From: Caerostris extrusa
Lineage: Eukaryota
DNA length: 10,096 bases
Direction: 5' to 3'
Assembly (NCBI GenBank): GCA_021605095.1
Contig: BPLR01000781.1
Coordinates: forward strand, 130,414 to 140,509
In this document: positions 1-10,096 of the stretch, one piece after another
Layout: every line of letters begins with the position of its first letter
Numbering within the stretch: position 1 is the stretch's first letter
The notes under the pieces: generated by a model
What the model saw: the letters and a program-made list of their open reading frames with translations, nothing else
What the model was told of the DNA's origin: nothing
Databases searched by the model: none
Program-made: the position numbers and the translations under genes

Positions 1-413
1 AATAAAATACATATTAAATAAACAAGAATTATAAAATAAAATATTTATACAAATGCAACTAAAAAAATAATGATAAGCTCTTTTTATATCACAGATAATT
101 AATGCTTACAGACTGTTTCTCTCTGAAATATATTTCTTATGATACCTCTTTTTCAGAACTTAGACAAAGTCCAACAGCTACATGATTCAAGCATCCAATT
201 TCCTTACAGACAAGTATGCAAACTTCCCGGATGAACTGCAAATTCCAATTACTCTTTAAATTCCCTTCTAATGGAACAACATGCTAAAATCACTTTTCAC
301 TTAGATGATCTTAACTTCCAAAATACATAATTGATCCCTTTAATTAAAAACCTATTTGAGCAACATAAAGAAACAACGAAAATCATTCAGACATGCAACA
401 CTTCAAAAGATCT

Positions 414-434
414 AAAAAAAAAAAAAAAAAAAAA
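414..434 (+). repeat. Poly(A) homopolymer, 21 A.
   Basis: Read directly from the sequence. The mirror position in the right arm has a shorter T9 run (7486-7494) within conserved flanks (aaaaattcaattttca). This is therefore an old microsatellite that is part of the palindrome, not a retroposon tail. Confidence 0.9.
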
Positions 435-1831
435 TTCAATTTTCAGATGTAAATAATTTCACATTTTTTTACAGGCAGTATTTCCCACAACATTGTCTTT
501 ATCAAAGGAGCTCTAACTCCCATACTATTTATCTCTTCTCAAATCAATTCAGCTCATGATTTTATAATTTTAACAGATCAGCTTATCAGAACAGTTCAAT
601 CAGCTTATAATCTTCATAGATATCTTTTCAAATAATCAAAAATAGCAGCTTTCATGCTATATTTTTCAAAAAATTACTTGGTCACTAACTTTTCCAAATT
701 TGAAACATATCTATCAAATTTATACGAGTTCCAAAGCATGCTGGTCTTCAGAAAATGAGTTAGTAGATTCCATAGCCAAAGCAGTTAAACTAGTCTTACA
801 CTGGATATCACCAAAAGAATTATTACTCATAAAAAAAAGGGTAAAAATTAATATGATTAAACAATAAATACACTAAAGAATTTTTCCTTTTAATCATCAT
901 TAAAATTAAACATCACACATTCCGAATGGGAAAGCAAACAAATTTTTATATAATATCCTGTCCATCTCAAATTAAACTCAATAAATTTTGGTTTATTTTC
1001 TCTCCAATATATTTCAAATGCAATCAGCTGCAGAATATTCTATTCATATGCAAGAGATATACGGGAGCACAGAGAAAAATCCCAAGCAGTTTTGAATGCT
1101 ATGTTTTCCTTTCACCTATATTTTTTATCCAATTCATTATGCTCATAAAAAAAAACTATCTTTTAAAGAATTGTAAGCCTTTTTCTTAATAGATTTTATA
1201 AGTTAATACATCAAAAGTGTACTTTTGCCCCCATTCTTTTTAATAAATTTTTCCTTTACTTTTCAACTTACACATTTGTAAGTTCTTTTTTTTCCTTCGT
1301 ACTTTTCAAGCTGTAATTGGATAAATTGAGATAAAGCAATGACGTAAAAAAATAAAATCAAAGAATTATTAAAATAAAATGCTTTATAATAATGCAAAAA
1401 CTATTGGGATATTTGCTTTTCAAAATATTAAAATATTACATAGAATGTAGAAAAAAAATTAGAGTGAAACAAAAAACACAATATTTTGCATATTAAAAAT
1501 TGATGAAATAAATCTATCGTTTTTTTAAATATCTTGAATGAAAAGAATTTGTTATCAAGTGCTAATTAAATAAACAGATATCAAAATTATTTAAATATAC
1601 TTCTAATAAATGAGACATACCTTTAAATAAACCATGTTTTTGTCTTTTTTAATGTTAATTAAAAATATATATTTCACATCAATTAAAAAAATGCTAAACT
1701 TTTAAAAATAAATAATAATAAAATAAAATTTTTTTATATTTCAAATTATGAAGGTTTATTTTAATTAAAAATAAAAAATACCATAGTTTGTCAAAGGAAT
1801 ATAGGGCATCTATCATTTCAGTGTAGGAAGA

Positions 1832-2162
1832 TTAGAGATGGGCCTCCAGAAGCTCTTTCTGGGTACACCTAATGGATTCTTTAATACCATTTTTTTCATC
1901 TAAAACAATGAATAGAAATAGTTTTGAAGATTCAAAATCAAAATTTGTGAAATGATTTGAGATCCCAAAAATCTCTTCAAGAATATTATTTATTTTAAAT
2001 ATTGATAGTTTTTGTCCTTTGAACTTGACAATGTCATCTCTTCGGCCTTCAAAATAGAATGAACCTTTATAAATCTGAACAATATCTCCAGTTGATCGCA
2101 TTATTTTATGATTGCAATTTGGCCACTCTTCATTATTAATGATGCACCATCTTTTCTTCCAC
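1832..2162 (-). CDS. AASDH: Internal coding exon of an AMP-binding (adenylate-forming) enzyme, AASDH/ACSF4-like (beta-alanine-activating enzyme family). The 3' end is uncertain: the exon may end at the in-frame stop (1832) or at a donor-like AG|GTGTAC near 1868.
   Basis: This is the only long clean ORF in the window (112 codons, minus strand). Its translation, ...RWCIINNEEWPNCNHKIMRSTGDIVQIYKGSFYFEGRRDDIVKFKGQKLSIFKINNILEEI..., carries the adenylation-domain core pattern (Y/M)R(T/S)GD ... G.(F/Y)(F/Y).GR.DD.(V/I)K.(R/K)G.(R/K)(I/L). As I recall it, the closest match is the divergent version in AASDH (...TMRATGDFVTVKDGEIFFLGRKDSQIKRHGKRLNIELVQQV...). On the minus strand the ORF is preceded by a pyrimidine-rich tract and AG (ctttattgtttag|GTGGAAG, around 2163-2175), which fits a 3' splice site. 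The exon is in phase with a split codon. The family assignment is from memory and was not checked by search. Confidence 0.7.
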
Positions 2163-2175
2163 CTAAACAATAAAG
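2163..2175 (-). other. Putative 3' splice site (polypyrimidine tract plus AG) for the AMP-binding exon.
   Basis: Minus strand reads ctttattgtttag|GTGGAAGAAAAG. The ORF frame begins with a split codon (AG|G). The same motif survives at the mirror position in the right arm (aaattttag|GTGAG, 6061-6070). Confidence 0.5.
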
Positions 2176-2792
2176 TTTTTAAAAATCAATCAAAATAGGA
2201 GTGTTAAAAATAGGTCCAAATATACATCAAAAATTAAAAACTGTAATTCTTTCTATTAGTCTTATAACTTAAAATTTTAAATAACTAAGCTTTTTCATAA
2301 ACAAATGTATAGTTTGTAAATCATAGAAAAATCAATAAATTGAATAATAAATGAAAAAGTAATAATATACTATAATTTTTAAGTTAAAAGTCTTTGGAAT
2401 TTAACAGTGCAGAATATAGGAAAATGCATTGAATTTTTTAATGAAATTTCAGTAAAAATTAATTCTACTAGCCCAGGCAGGTGTTATTTCTATATAAAAG
2501 CAAGCTTAAAGCTAATAAAATTTAATTTATGCCAGAAGTGAATAAATAATTTAATTAAATTACAAAAAAAAGGCACAAGAATTAACTTTTAAATACTAAA
2601 AAAACAAAGATTTTATCAATAAAAAATTAGAATTACAATAGAATTCTATGTAGTCATGTAATGTTTTTGAGGATGTAGAATTTTGGGTTTGCAGTGTTAT
2701 AGTGATTTTCAAGATAAGCAAATTTAACTGAAATGTTTTTAAAAGAGTGGGAAGTTTAATGTCATGGTGTAATTTCTTATTGCAGATGTAAC

Positions 2793-2810
2793 TTTTTTTT
2801 TTTTTTTTTT
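2793..2810 (+). repeat. Poly(T) homopolymer, 18 T.
   Basis: Read directly from the sequence. It lies in a stretch of left-arm sequence that has no counterpart in the right arm (right-arm equivalent around 5560-5580). Confidence 0.9.
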
Positions 2811-3120
2811 AAATTCTGGATAGTTAAATTTTTGCTGTGCATTCAAAATGTTGAAGTTTGACTTTGTAGTGTATAGCTCGAACCAAGCATGCATAAATGA
2901 GAATTGGTCTAAAAAAGTACTGCGTACATGAGAATTTTGTTTTCCCTGCCCATTACAGAGTGTTTATTAATTAATGGACATAGAGCTCTGGTACAATTAC
3001 AAATTTCTGTTTGACATATAGAATATGTGGTTTCAAAGTTATGTGCTGGTTAAAAAGAATGACAAGAAGATTTGTTTGTTTACTCCAAAAAATGAGTTTA
3101 TCATTAATTTAATTGATTGA

Positions 3121-3137
3121 TTTTTTTTTTTTTTTTT
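3121..3137 (+). repeat. Poly(T) homopolymer, 17 T.
   Basis: Read directly from the sequence. The right-arm counterpart is only A8 (about 5339-5346) within conserved flanks. Confidence 0.9.
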
Positions 3138-3410
3138 AGGTTTATACATTTTTTTGAAGATGAAATTTGTGCACTGATTGATTGATAATGATATTATTAT
3201 GATTTTTTATTTATCTAACAAATATAAAGAACGACAGAAGCAGATTATATTCCATTCGGATAAAAATAGATTACATTTTCAAATATCTGATAATTCAAAG
3301 TTTTCAGACAGTATTTTTTTTAAATCGATTCTTGTATTCTTAAATAGAATCTTTTGTTTATTTTACCTATAATAAGTTGCCCATCTATAAAATATGTCAG
3401 TACATGTTCC

Positions 3411-3421
3411 TTTTTTTTTTT
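3411..3421 (+). repeat. Poly(T) homopolymer, 11 T.
   Basis: Read directly from the sequence. Confidence 0.85.
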
Positions 3422-4324
3422 CTCATGGTGCTATCATACATGCATTTTCTTTATGATTTTCCTATATTATTATGTATTTGTATATTTTTTATATTATTTT
3501 GGCAGAAAAGGCTTGAAGAAGTTTGCTTTTAAAAAGTGTGACAAATTTTATGCTAGTTTAAAATCTTAAGGTCAAATACAAAAAGATGTTTGTTCAATTG
3601 ATTAATATACTGTGAAGTAAAAATCTTGATATTCTGAGTTGAAATTCAATTTATGTTATGTATTGTTTTTAACATTGTCAGTAAAACATTGTTCTATTAT
3701 AAAAATGTCTTTACTTTATTATGATAGCTTTTTTGTAAGAAAATATTGATTTTTAAAAACAATTTTTCAAATTACAATACAAGTATAATAATAATATGCA
3801 TAATAAAAAATTTTAGAAGTATTTTTTTTATTAGACATTATAAGCATTGATATCCAAAATTAAGCTTCTTATCATAGTTAAAAATTGATTAGCATATTTT
3901 TGGATCATTATTTACTATAATGATGAATAAAATTGGCAAGTCATATCTTTGTTTAAGTGAATAAAGAAAAGCTAAAAATACTACCTATACTAAGTTCATT
4001 TTCATCAGTTAATTCAAAACTTGTATCCAAAAATAGGTTTTCCCAAAGGAATAGAATTTGACATATATCTATAATATAAAAATGAGTTATTTGTATCATG
4101 TAGATGCTTAAGGTAGAATTATACATATTACATTTAAATAAATAAAGAATATTAATTTATAATAATTTTATAACATAACTTTTATTTTTCTAAAGTTCTT
4201 TGCCAATTATTGTGTTTTTTGTGATCCCATGTTTAAGATATATTCTTTAAGAAATAATATGACAAGGGTAGTGAAACTTGACCTTAATATTTGATTTTCA
4301 AATAAAGAAAACTTTTATGAACAG

Positions 4325-4330
4325 TTGGTG
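4325..4330. other. Central spacer and symmetry axis of the palindrome (ttggtg).
   Basis: It is flanked by ttcaaataaagaaaacttttatgaacag (4297-4324) and its near-perfect reverse complement ctgttcatagaagttttcttttatttgaa (4331-4359). About 27 of 29 positions match. Confidence 0.85.
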
Positions 4331-7300
4331 CTGTTCATAGAAGTTTTCTTTTATTTGAATCAGAGTCAGGGACTCACTACTCTTGTCGCCAACCCATTTC
4401 CTAACCAAAAGAATGCTTATCTTAAACATGGGATCACAAACACGTGGTTGGCAAGGGAACTTAGAAAAATAAAGCCCATGTTATAAGAGTATTATAAATT
4501 GGCTATTCTTTTATTTATTCAAATGTAATATGTATAATTCTACCTTAACCTCTACATGTTACAAGCCTTCATTTATATTATGGGTGTCAAATTCTATTCC
4601 TTTGGGAAAACTGTTTTGGATGCAAACACGAATTATTTGGAAATGAAGAGGCTTAGTAGGCAGTATTTTAACTTTCTATTCATAAACTAGATGAACTTGC
4701 CATTTTAAATAATGATCAAAGAATATGCTAATCAATGCAACATGATAAACAATTTGAATATCAATATATTTAATAAAAAAACTTCATATTATATATTATT
4801 ATACTTGTATTGTAATTTGAAAAAATTACAAAATCAGCTGACACTAACTACAAAAAAGCTATCCTGTAAAAACCAAAAGACATTTTAACCAAATTTGTGT
4901 TTTACTGACAATGTGCACTAATACATAACATAGAGGTAATTTCAGCTTCAGGGTATCCAGACTTTCACGGCTGATGGCGGTGAGACAAGCATTTCTTTTG
5001 TGAGCTGCTGGAGGCAAACTAGCATACGCAAAAGCAGGCTCTTCCAGCACCTTTCTGCCAAATGTAAAAATATGCAATACATAATAATGAGGAATCATGA
5101 AAAATAAATGTATATTGCATAACAAGAAAAGGCAAAAGGCAACTGTGGGTAAAACAAACAAAAGATTCTGGAATTCAGGAAATCGGCTATACGGCAATTA
5201 TCAGATATTTGAAAATGTAATCTGTCAGTGGGTATAATCTGCTTCTGTCGTTCTTTTTATATTTGTTAGATAAACAAAATCATGAAAATTATATCGTCAT
5301 CAATCAATCACAAACTAAATCTTCAAATGTAAACCACAAAAAAAATCAGCTGGTAAATTAATGATAGAACTCATTTTTAGGTAAAACAAACAAATCTTCT
5401 TGTCATTCTTTGACCAGCACATAACGAACCACTATTCTGTCAAACAGAGAATATGTCCATTGAGATTATGGAAACAAAACAATAACCACGTATTTTAGAC
5501 CAATTCTCATTTATGCGCGCTGACCGGCCTACAAGTCAAACTCAACATTTTGAATGCAGCAAGAGTTACAGCCTGCCATGACGATAAACTTCCACTCTTA
5601 CTCGGTTGCATCTTGAAATCGCTACCCATCTCAAAAAAACATTACATGTTTACATGGAAATTGTGTAATTCTTATTGAACTCAAAATCTCATTTTAGTAT
5701 TTAAAGGGCAATTCTTTGTCTTCCATTTTGATTTGAATAGGTGTTATTCACTTCTGGGCATAAATTCAGGGCATTGGCTTTTAAGCTTATATAAGTAGCA
5801 CTGCTAGGTGAGATAATTAATTTGCTGAGGCCATTAAACGTGCATTTTCACTGTTCCTTCACTGATAAAACCAAAAGACTTTAACTTAAGGCCTGGTATG
5901 TACTTTTCATTTGACCATTCAGTTTATTGATTTTTCTATGATTTCTCTTACAAATATACATTTGTTTATGGCACGGATTATTGCAGGAGCAGAAAAGAAC
6001 CACATTTTTCCAATTTTGATGTTGGACTTCAGCTAGCGCTTTCATTTTGATTGATTTTAAAAATTTTAGGTGAGATGCGTATTAATGTGAGAGTGGCAGC
6101 CACGTCATAAAATAATGCGATCAACTGGAGATGTGTTCGGGCCCCATGGTTCATTCTATTTTGAAGGCCGAGAAAAGTGACATTGTCAGAGATTCCAAGG
6201 ACAAAAAACTATAATATTTAAAATAAATAATATTGAAGTTGCAGGTCTCAAATGAAACACTAGTGCCCGATTTGAAAATCTTCTTTTAGATGAAAAAAAT
6301 GACTGTCTCCATTAGGTGTAATGAAAGAGCTTGGAGGCTCCATCTCTGTCTTCCTATGACAGTATTAGATGTTCCTTGTATTCCTTTGACAAACCATGTT
6401 ATTTTTAATTAAAATAAACCTTCATGAATATAGAAATTTTAGAAATTTATTATTATTTATTTTAAAGAGATTTGACACAGTGATGTGAAAATATTTTAAT
6501 TAACATTAAAAAGACAAAAGCTGGTTTATTAAGGCATGTCTCGGCTGACAAGTATGTTTAAATAATTTTGCATTCTATATATTTAACCACAAATGGCACT
6601 TGATAACAAAATTCTTTTTCATTAAAAGACATTAAAACCGTGTATTTCATTCAATTTTGGCATATGCAAGATATTTTGTTCCTCTAATTTTCTGCATTCT
6701 ATGTATGTTTGCAGCTATTTTAGAAAAGCAAGTTTTTGCGTATTAAAGCATTTTATTTTGTAATTCTTTTGTTCCTAAATCATTGCTGTCTGCAATTTAT
6801 CCAAGTACAGCTATGCGAAGGAAAAAAGAACTACAAGTAGTAAAGAAAAATTTATTAAGAATGAAGGCATACACTTTTAACATTAACAACAAAATCTATT
6901 AAAAAAATTTCTTCTTTTAAAAGATAGTTTTTTTTATGAGCATAATAGTGAGATAAACTAGCAGGTGGAAAACCTTAACATTGCGCCAGAATTTTCTGTT
7001 AACTAAATATCTCTTGCATATGAATAAGAATATTCTGCAGCTGATACATTTAATATATTGAGAGAGAAAGCAAACCCATTGAGCCAGGCATTGACCATAT
7101 GAAACCACATTTTTCCCCATCTGTGATGTTGAGCACAATGATGATTAAAAGGAAAATTCTTTTGGTATTTAATATTTAATCATATTTTGCCCTTTTATGG
7201 TAATAGTCTTTTGGTGATATCCAGTGTAAGACTAGTTTAACTGCTTTGGCTATGGAATCTACTTAATCATTTTCTCAGCATGCTGCTCATAGTGACCAGA

Positions 7301-7811
7301 TATGTTTCAAATTTAGTCAATGACAATATTTTGAAAATACTTTCTTTGCTATCATATGAAGCCGCAACGATCTGTTCAAAGTATAGTATCTTGAAGCTGA
7401 TAAATATGGGGATAAACTCCTTGACAAAGATTTTAATGTTATTAAAGGAAATACTACTGAAAAAATGTGAGTATTGAAAATTGAATTTTTTTTAAGTGTT
7501 ACGTGATTTTAAGTAGCACCTCATTAACTCAATAGGTTTTTTAATTAAAGGGATCAATCTCTCACATTTAGAAGTGGGTCATCTAAGGAAGTGAAAGTAT
7601 TTTAGCATGTTCCCGTAGAGGAATTTGGAGGCTGCGGTTCATCCGAAGTTCTAACGAGAGAATTGGATGCTTGAGCTCACTTTTGTCTAAGTTCTGAAAG
7701 AAGATGTCATAAATATATTTCAGAGAGCTGGTCTGTAAGCATTAATTACTCTGGCCAAAAGAGCTTATCGTATTTTGGTTACTAGTATAGGCATTTAATA
7801 TGTATTTTATT
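4331..7811. repeat. Right arm of the large imperfect palindrome. It is about 850 bp shorter than the left arm because of many small indels.
   Basis: Same anchor set as the left arm. In-window homology ends at 7811, which pairs with window position 1. Whether the palindrome continues past 7811 cannot be judged, because the matching left-hand sequence lies outside the window. Confidence 0.9.
6070..6350 (+). pseudogene. Degenerate inverted copy (pseudo-exon) of the AMP-binding exon at 1832-2162.
   Basis: Plus strand 6109-6132 (aaaataatgcgatcaactggagat) equals the reverse complement of 2085-2108, and the homology continues in both directions. Translated in the matching frame it reads ...HKIMRSTGDVFGPHGSFYFEGREK*. 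Compared with the left copy there is a 1-nt insertion (ggccgagaaaagtgacattgtc against ggccgaagagatgacattgtc), a premature TGA, and two further stops plus a 5-codon deletion in the part equivalent to FRWKKRWCIINNEEWPNCNH. An acceptor-like tttag|GTGAG is retained at 6064-6070. Confidence 0.75.
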
Positions 7812-10096
7812 GCCTTCAGGCAAAAGCAGGCCTAAAAAATTGCTTTTTGTTAAGCAGCAGAAATATCCAGTGCCCAATACCTGATTTTTAACAAGGATGA
7901 TAGAAGTTGTGGAAGGTAGATACTTGCCCATCTTTATTTCTACTTTAAAATTTATGTGGTAATTTATTTTTGGCTCAGCTGCATTTCCACGGCAGGACAT
8001 CAGAGCCAGAGGCGAGAAGTGATGAACCGTTCTGGAATAGTGATGCTTTTCCCGACACATTCAAGGTGACGAATGAAGTTTGAAGCCTGGTCCTGATCGA
8101 GATGACTAACAAACATATTTGAGCTCTTAAGCCATTGCCCCTGTATTAAATAGACTGTGTGTTTCATGACATTAACACAACCTTCATTAAAAGAAAACTG
8201 CATCTCTCATTGTTTTGAAATTTGATAACTGATATGTAATCATTCAAAGAAAACTATGTCATGTGCAGTAATTGAACCACGAGATTATTAATGTGAGTTA
8301 TCTTTTTGTTCATTATGCATTAACGACAAGAAATGCATAGATTCATCTCCATGATGGTTGTATTTGAGTAAGTAAACACATATTTCATTACAATAAAGGG
8401 AGTTATTTTGCATTTTTTGTTTTAGTATTTAATAAATGCTCTTTCTTTTCTTATAAAAGATTTTCAAATTTCATAATTGACAAATGAAAGAGAGTATTAC
8501 ATCATGTATAATTATAAAAAAATTTTGAGAATAAGCACCTATTCAGCCACAACTGATCAAACTAACAAGGTATAAGTGAACATATACTTTATCTTAGAAA
8601 CACTGATAAATTTAAGATTAGCTTTGCAATTCCCAAAAAGGAAGTACATGAGGCTGTTATTATTTGGAAACTGTCAGTGTGAGGCATTCAAAGCTGTTAA
8701 TTTGAGAAGCTGTGCAGTCCAGGCCCTTGACCACACCGCCGGTCATGCAAGCATATTTCAGCACGGCGAAACAGTATCATCCCTCCTCCAGGTTTGAGTT
8801 ATGTGGTAATCTCTTCCTGTTCTTGAAGAGGTAAAACTCTTTGATCTTCAAGCAGAACCAAATGAGTGTGTCAATCCCCGACTATATAACGTTACATTCC
8901 ATTTGCAACCGGCACCATATTTTGTCCATCACAAAACTATTAAACAAAGCAATATTTCCACAAAAAATTTATTTAACGTGTGCATTAAGCTACAAGTATC
9001 TGAGATACTATGGAATGTCATTTAAGTAGTATCTCTATTATTTGTACTTAATGACACAGGTCAATGACTTTCACAGCATTGGATCACATTCTGAGCCGAG
9101 ATCTCTTAAATGCGCTCTAAGTGACTATCAAGTTGTGGAAGTATGTATGTTGGTGAGTGTGTTTAAACCTGTGCTTATTTTATATACCTGTTTTTGTCTA
9201 TAAGTGTTATATCTTCTTTTGAGCGAGTAAAATGAATTGTAAATAAATTCTTTTATTTGTTACACTTTCAGTGCTGAAAATATTGCATTTTTCAAACATA
9301 TGAAATTAGCAATAGGAGTATATTTTCAAGATTATTAAGTACCTTTTCTCTATACCAACTTTTATATTAGATAAAGAAGAAATTCATACAAATACATTGT
9401 ATCAAATGATTTAAAGTTCTACCAAAGTATTATTAGAATAAAAAACTATTCTTTTGATAAAAATTATTTATATATACTCTGATTTGGAGTAAAATACTTT
9501 TGATGAAATTTTGGCATGAATGCTTTTCACTCTGTTAAGAGCCTTGAAATAGCAGACTGAAAGGAGTTTGCTGTTGATAGGGCATTATAATTAATAAACA
9601 ATTTAAAATAAATGCTGAGGGTGAAAATACTAAAACCAATACATATTTCTTCCTTATTCAGCATTTGCGTGTCTAGCAATTAGGATATTTCATGATATTT
9701 AGTACAAATTTGCTGTTTCTGGATTTTATTTTATCAGTGCTATTGTGTTGACATGGAGGCTGATAACTCGGCACAAAAGAATGTATGGAAGTCCCGTTTA
9801 ATACTAAATTTTAGCACACTTCTTTGCTTCCCAAGTGTATGAAATATTTTCTTGATTACCCTGTTTTAGAATTCAAGGTATGGTAACGATATTTGTGCTA
9901 ATTTCTTTCAGATTACTTTGCAAATATCAATAATTATTTTTTTTCTGTATAATAGCTTTTGTGCTGTTTAGTAGTTTTATTAAAAGTACCAAGCACATTA
10001 GTGTAAATAGTAATATTTATAATTCGTAATGTTCCAGGATGATGTAATCTGTATTGTTTGAATATCAAAAGACAGAGGATTCAGAAACCATGGCTT

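Follow-up and report, generated by a model that had tools for sequence, protein, structure and literature searches.

A one-sidedly damaged palindrome of the 3' part of AASDH in a Caerostris extrusa contig and its possible origin as an assembly fold-back

Introduction

Some long reads fold back on themselves. In a fold-back read the second segment aligns to the same place as the first on the opposite strand, and the breakpoint has almost no sequence between the two segments (Heinz, Meyerson & Li 2026, PMC12870357). They account for about 0.55-0.6% of Oxford Nanopore Technologies (ONT) genomic reads; fewer than half of them have more than 11 bp between their two alignments, adapter-based filtering does not catch them, and assembly graphs can become tangled through them (PMC12870357). 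Inverted-duplication artefacts from palindromic long reads have also been described with Pacasus (bioRxiv 10.1101/173872). Here we report on a stretch of 10,096 nucleotides (nt) from Caerostris extrusa (GenBank assembly GCA_021605095.1, contig BPLR01000781.1, positions 130,414 to 140,509 of the forward strand), hereafter the window, which carries a palindrome over the 3' part of AASDH, the gene for the beta-alanine-activating enzyme. Like fold-back reads, the palindrome returns to the same place on the opposite strand, across a breakpoint with almost no sequence between the segments; one low-fidelity arm and a gene truncated at the junction can be listed as further likenesses. Unlike the reads in those papers, it stands in a deposited assembly, and its persistence there together with the ~23% of deleted bases is our own inference.

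The second system to be considered is that of the hairpin RNA (hpRNA) loci of Drosophila. What defines these loci is their own transcription unit together with Dcr-2-dependent small interfering RNAs (siRNAs) (Vedanayagam et al. 2023, PMC10317233). Inverted repeats of a progenitor exon in hpRNAs give fully complementary siRNAs, and the arms can be near-perfectly complementary (PMC10317233). Like these loci, the palindrome has arms from protein-coding exon sequence and, if transcribed, would form a long hairpin complementary to the gene. Unlike hpRNAs, its arms are 3.5-4.3 kb long, intron-containing, ~66% identical and riddled with indels, and the locus is known here from sequence alone. An earlier note on this DNA had proposed that the pre-mRNA of an AMP-binding enzyme gene carries here an antisense copy of its own exon.

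The gene itself is best compared with AASDH of other araneoid spiders (Argiope bruennichi, Trichonephila clavata and Araneus ventricosus). Like these genes, the locus has the exon boundaries at residues 336-364 and 363-494, with 74-76% DNA identity and 54-64% protein identity, and the intron of 1.8 kb in the window is close to the 1.9 kb of A. ventricosus. Unlike them, it has a mirror copy in place of the exons for residues 1-335, and five small indels break the frame. Of the explanations weighed below, an assembly fold-back is the most likely for the palindrome; failing that, it would be an ordinary inverted duplication that has decayed.

Results and Discussion

Geometry of the palindrome

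Self-alignment showed that positions 1-7811 form one inverted repeat with its axis at 4325-4330 (BLAST E = 0, far beyond chance). The exon and its copy thus belong to a kilobase-scale inverted repeat, as the earlier note had thought possible. BLAST self-comparison gave minus-strand high-scoring segment pairs joining 64-356 with 7531-7776 and 663-2668 with 5635-7337, and a self-palindromic segment pair at 2999-5456 (E = 0). As shown in Table 1, 6 nt make up the whole spacer between the arms, in which no adapter-like sequence was seen. The layout is that of a fold-back, with the same locus on opposite strands and a 6-nt spacer, for which the cut-off is 200 bp between breakpoints (PMC12870357).

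The left arm is truncated by the window start, and the right arm is 843 nt short of its length. Because the left arm is cut there, the flank at 7812-10096 probably continues the mirror image of DNA lying to the left of the window. This flank is like the right arm in GC (32%), in CpG observed/expected (0.41) and in its A/T runs (8 nt at most).

When the left arm was globally aligned with the reverse-complemented right arm, there were 2880 matches and 335 mismatches. Identity per 100 nt ranged from 0.43 to 0.83 with a mean of about 0.66, and it was roughly uniform along the length. The exon had been described as the strongest-looking part of the stem; it does not stand out, with 0.55-0.78 per 100 nt against an arm average of 0.66. 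The best-kept block pairs 750-818 with 7207-7275 (69 nt, 97%). It is of high complexity, has no match in the orthologous loci and was placed in no exon.

Table 1. Coordinates of the features of the window, with the strand and the evidence for each.
Feature	Position	Strand	Evidence
Left arm: AASDH gene segment, introns and two exons	1..4324	-	self-alignment, composition, orthology
Left large exon, residues ~363-494	1782..2162	-	74-76% DNA identity to orthologs
Left small exon, residues ~336-364 (SNSIPLGKP..LDTSFELTDENELSIG)	3985..4068	-	blastn, T. clavata 76%, A. ventricosus 73%
Palindrome axis, ATGAACAG-TTGGTG-CTGTTCAT at 4317-4338	spacer 4325..4330	.	sequence inspection
Right arm, mirror image of left arm	4331..7811	+	self-alignment
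Right-arm small-exon copy	~4585..4659	+	4-way alignment
Right-arm large-exon copy	6070..6398	+	alignment with left arm and orthologs
Probable mirror-copy continuation, partner left of window start	7812..10096	+	composition
Degraded 3' part of exon 533-689 (..LICNHSKK..KKCIDSSP), with stops	8181..8353	+	tblastn, HMM, blastn

Gene identity and exon map

The left arm contains a minus-strand open reading frame (ORF) of 112 codons at 1832-2170. Its segment 1868-2158 is homologous to the beta-alanine-activating enzyme of Argiope bruennichi (HMMER, 64% amino acid identity, E 2e-33). The top match is a 960-amino-acid 'beta-alanine-activating enzyme-like' protein of that species, with the architecture AMP-binding, PP-binding and ACSF4 beta-propeller. 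A phmmer search with the exon translation against 1.84 billion representatives returned 743 matches at an E value of 1e-3 or below. The exon also matched the region of the TGD and GRxD..K..G motifs in adenylation domains of nonribosomal peptide synthetases and acyl-CoA synthetases in the PDB (best E 0.005), and these matches fall at equivalent positions of the chains. By this homology, motifs included, the exon belongs to the adenylate-forming superfamily and to AASDH within it, which bears out the family assigned in the earlier note.

The homology search that had been suggested for the exon translation thus found the parent family, although Pfam alone, run on the translation of 1832-2170, reported no family. 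The Pfam result does not speak against the assignment, because the AMP-binding model PF00501 stops at residue 358 of the A. bruennichi protein, just before this exon. A word-indexed homolog search with the exon likewise gave no match, and ten ORFs of the window that were looked up by exact sequence in the protein collection had no entry there.

The left exon is 57-64% identical to the proteins of Araneidae and 54-58% identical to those of Nephilidae, and the proteins of the two families are 56-61% identical to each other. Being as close to both families as they are to each other, it has evolved as an ordinary ortholog would.

The AASDH genes of T. clavata and A. ventricosus served as orthologous loci for the exon map. 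The exons of interest in them encode residues 259-335, 336-364, 363-494 (396 nt), 494-532 and 533-689. Two of these exons lie in the left arm. The small exon (84 nt) is flanked by an AG acceptor and a G|GTAGTA donor. The large exon, which comparison with the two genes places at 2162 to 1782, codes for the C-terminal subdomain of the adenylation domain together with the TGD and GRRDD..K..G motifs. The intron between the two exons is of similar size in the window (1.8 kb, 2162-3985) and in A. ventricosus (~1.9 kb) but measures 6.1 kb in T. clavata (positions 17313-23465 of that locus), and its sequence could not be aligned between the species.

Both exons have degraded copies in the right arm. 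The small-exon copy has lost the acceptor AG and the donor GT, and it is 1 nt under the orthologs exactly where the left arm is 1 nt over. The large-exon copy is 329 nt long, against 381 nt in the left arm and 396 nt in the orthologs; it carries three in-frame stops, several frameshifts and numerous indels, and TT stands in place of its donor GT. The right-hand copy at 6070-6398 is therefore a non-coding mirror image, as had been claimed for it. Farther right, 8181-8353 matches the T. clavata exon for residues 533-689 (blastn E 3.6e-5, 92% over 8328-8353), and its left-arm partner lies outside the window.

Protein, profile and DNA searches detected no exon for AASDH residues 1-335 on either strand of the window. 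The axis lies ~260 nt upstream of the small exon (residues 336-364), where the gene ought to continue. From the exon map and the absence of residues 1-335, the structure is the 3' part of AASDH folded back head-to-head on itself. The complete architecture of AMP-binding, PP-binding and ACSF4 beta-propeller is not present at the locus: the left arm represents residues ~336-494 only, and the mirror half adds degraded pieces at residues ~640-700 and, weakly, at 745-756. Nor does an ORF run across the AASDH exons at the locus.

Two candidates for upstream sequence were rejected. Minus-strand N-terminal matches at 7965-8048 and 9483-9633 were not collinear, had E > 1 and had no exon-DNA support. 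The peptide 'NMYNSTL' upstream of the small exon was considered as the NLYGxTE motif; the ortholog map puts this motif in a separate upstream exon, and the stretch is intronic.

The exon for residues 494-532 was not located with confidence within the window. A weak candidate is 'LWNSYK' at 719-742 (-). The peptide 'SMLWNSYKFDRYVSNLEKLV' at 683-742 (-) and 7280-7340 (+) resembles spider AASDH '..LW(K/Q)SYT' followed by 'NQETVKDIDNFI', also weakly (E ~0.7). This motif spans the junction of exons 494-532 and 533-689, and if the match is genuine the intron at that junction may be missing or shifted here. Another weak candidate lies at 7821-7917 (+), where a good acceptor, ttattgccttcag, is followed by 'GKSRPKKLLFVKQQK..', which resembles the 'GKxDxKKLL' start of the exon; we take the lysine of this GK to be the catalytic one. 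This candidate conflicts in order with that at 683-742/7280-7340.

Lesions in the left copy

The left copy differs from both orthologs by five small frame-breaking indels. In the small exon one extra nucleotide beside the T-run at 4029-4034 shifts the frame. The large exon lacks 1 nt at its 5' start, and its last ~80 nt are a net 5 nt below the orthologs, so that an ortholog-like reading changes frame three times there. The stops TAA (1832-1834) and TGA TAG arise solely through these frame changes, and no nonsense substitution relative to the orthologs was found in the left-arm exons. The earlier note had called the exon at 1832-2162 intact. This holds for the middle ~290 nt, the only part of the large exon that is in frame; it fails for the exon as a whole, whose true span is 2162 to 1782 and which shares in the five indels.

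One-sided divergence of the arms

The two arms differ markedly in composition. GC is 24% in the left arm and 32% in the right arm, CpG observed/expected is 0.24 and 0.46, and the longest A/T run is 21 nt on the left and 8 nt at most on the right. Among the left-arm A/T runs are ones of 21 nt (414-434), 18 nt (2793-2810) and 17 nt (3121-3137). For three long left-arm runs, of 21, 17 and 9 nt, the right-arm counterpart measures exactly 8 nt in every case. This ceiling of 8 nt may reflect homopolymer truncation by a base caller, or coincidence; a homopolymer-by-homopolymer comparison of the arms gave few clean cases.

Global alignment showed that the differences are one-sided. Bases present only on the left numbered 1013, in 258 events, those present only on the right 167, in 95 events, and sites with A/T on the left and G/C on the right outnumbered the reverse by 222 to 50. 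The left-only bases of the exon are right-arm deletions, because they are conserved coding sequence, and they are as dense in the exon as in the introns. Among the 295 reliable exon columns, changes polarised by the orthologs were right-derived in 12 cases, mostly from A/T to G/C, and left-derived in 3. None of the ~350 indel events exceeded 37 nt. Gap openings per mismatch ranged from 0.34 to 1, depending on scoring, and no excess of microhomology was found at deletion edges. In these respects the indels do not resemble natural ones.

Two causes within the left arm were considered and rejected. Slippage insertions do not account for the difference in length, tandem copies being no commoner than at random. 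CpG deamination does not account for the sites with T on the left and C on the right, of which 10 of 62 are in CpG, compared with a background of 17%.

We then simulated two types of damage, uniform and local-composition, on the left arm and ran the products through the same aligner. The observed ratio of A/T-to-G/C over G/C-to-A/T changes was 4.0, compared with 3.8-4.1 under uniform and 1.3-1.5 under local-composition damage. The GC of the private inserted bases of the right arm was 0.50, compared with 0.52-0.61 and 0.23-0.33, respectively. The observed values fit the uniform simulation and not the local-composition one, and the right half therefore looks like left-type sequence with composition-blind noise added. 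Its damage has an error-like profile, being composition-blind, indel-rich and short-tailed. Neutral evolution should alter both arms equally, because adjacent copies are of the same age; equal rates and a common compositional direction, as expected in the arms of a natural inverted duplication, were not found.

Origin of the palindrome

The best explanation of the palindrome, to which we give somewhat better than an even chance, is a fold-back chimeric long read that was built into the assembly. The left half would be the 3' part of AASDH on the minus strand, joined at 4325-4330 to a low-fidelity reverse-complement copy. Such a palindromic read would have entered the assembly with its second half uncorrected. 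The left arm would be at consensus quality, with ortholog-like conservation and ~1% small indels, and the right half would keep errors at the level of raw reads, since reads used for correction would align preferentially to the true arm. There would then be no biological hairpin, and the real gene would run on upstream into exons displaced by the fold-back. This one assumption explains the near-absent spacer, the gene cut at the axis and the mirrored downstream exons. It also explains the one-sided, indel-rich and composition-blind damage together with the indel-only lesions of the left arm, which looks like a live gene carrying consensus errors.

Several observations weigh against a fold-back read. 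Counted by bases instead of by events, the damage in the right arm (about 23% of bases deleted) exceeds the usual raw-read error, and the deletions include 33 of 8-37 nt in complex sequence. Substitutions comprise 185 transitions and 150 transversions, a bias that also arises in real evolution, and they show a strand asymmetry of 97 to 59. At 3 of the 295 reliable exon columns it is the left arm that is derived, the right arm having the base of the orthologs; for a right arm that is a noisy copy of the left, we estimate that chance would give ~0.8 such sites. The right arm is better in frame than the left over the final 80 nt of the large exon, and the perfect run of 56 nt at 762-817 is rather long for noise that is uniform and has the event rate observed. 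Neither half falls outside the range of GC, CpG and homopolymer values found along two orthologous spider loci. Composition alone does not identify an artefact, because each half is within the normal range; the abnormal feature is only the contrast between mirror partners. The technical origin of the damage in the right half, which we infer from sequence statistics alone, is nevertheless the most likely one.

The main rival is a real fold-back duplication of the 3' part of AASDH, starting from the intron before residue 336, that has left two decaying pseudogene fragments. We regard it as possible and hold it only tentatively. Both copies would be inert, without a promoter and the first ~335 codons, and a functional AASDH, if any, would lie elsewhere. 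The private frame-breaking lesions in both arms, the few left-derived sites at which the right arm keeps the ancestral base, the transition bias, the normal composition of both halves for spider loci and the absence of the upstream AASDH exons from the window all agree with such a duplication. However, adjacent copies of equal age should decay symmetrically, and instead gaps stand at 258 to 95, substitutions at 222 to 50 and the arms differ by 843 nt in length. Judged by the simulation, the excess of changes is composition-blind, whereas spontaneous mutation is AT-biased. Ortholog-level conservation and indel-only lesions are odd for the left exon of an old pseudogene, and there are no large indels or transposon insertions across ~8 kb despite ~10% substitution divergence.

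The hairpin of the earlier note requires that the palindrome is real and lies in one transcript, where the long imperfect hairpin would alter splicing, attract ADAR or yield siRNAs against AASDH. Part of this proposal stands. Exon and copy could pair if they were on one transcript: cofolding predicted a gain of -208 kcal/mol with 332 intermolecular bp, compared with -6.8 +/- 2.6 for shuffled sequences. Fourteen perfect runs of at least 21 nt, together 388 nt, include four within exons, the arms derive from a protein-coding gene, and Drosophila hpRNAs built on exon fragments of a progenitor gene set a precedent (PMC10317233). However, a highly complementary duplex is not kept along the arms, which are ~66% identical overall with one indel per 10-12 nt, and conservation of the exon between the arms does not exceed that of the intron, so that nothing suggests selection for pairing. 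The antisense reading further presupposes a minus-strand transcription unit beginning beyond the right end of the right arm. Neither a transcription unit nor upstream exons can be seen in the window. What stands to the right of the arm is plus-strand remnants of downstream exons, so that the mirror image simply continues there. A live pre-mRNA carrying its own antisense is thus not supported, as residues 1-335 are missing and the left copy is frame-broken as written. The hairpin also leaves the composition-blind asymmetry unexplained, and the one-sided damage of the right half suggests that the mirror copy may be absent from the genome altogether. A functional pre-mRNA hairpin is accordingly unlikely in our view, and we give this explanation a small chance.

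Still more doubtful is a real palindrome inside a long intron of a live AASDH, in which every pre-mRNA would carry a self-directed hairpin of at least 3.5 kb; it would mean a self-targeting hpRNA-like regulator or ADAR substrate in a spider, and the GC-gaining decay of one arm would need a biological cause, for example very local GC-biased gene conversion.

A real and transcribed palindrome would amount to an intragenic hairpin directed at an exon of its own host gene, and would give a first lead towards hpRNA-like loci in spiders. As a fold-back read, its main value is a warning: one-sided, composition-blind damage of a mirror copy is a recognisable sign of fold-back misassembly. Such misassembly truncates the gene model, here AASDH minus its first ~335 codons, and may mimic a regulatory structure. 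Similar cases can be flagged from sequence by an ortholog relative-rate test, by the A/T-to-G/C ratio and by the GC of inserted bases compared with simulation.

Other features of the window

Scans of the window for tRNA, Rfam families and tandem repeats gave nothing relevant, and a sub-threshold microRNA match among them was merely the axis hairpin. Another ORF of 112 codons lies at 4859-5197 (-), on the strand opposite to the right-arm gene copy. No Pfam family was found for it, and it probably either arose by chance or is a fragment of an unrecognised repeat. The left-arm ORFs at 3178-3372 and 3354-3569 (+) partly match it, with '..FFMI..YYV...FGRK..' in common.

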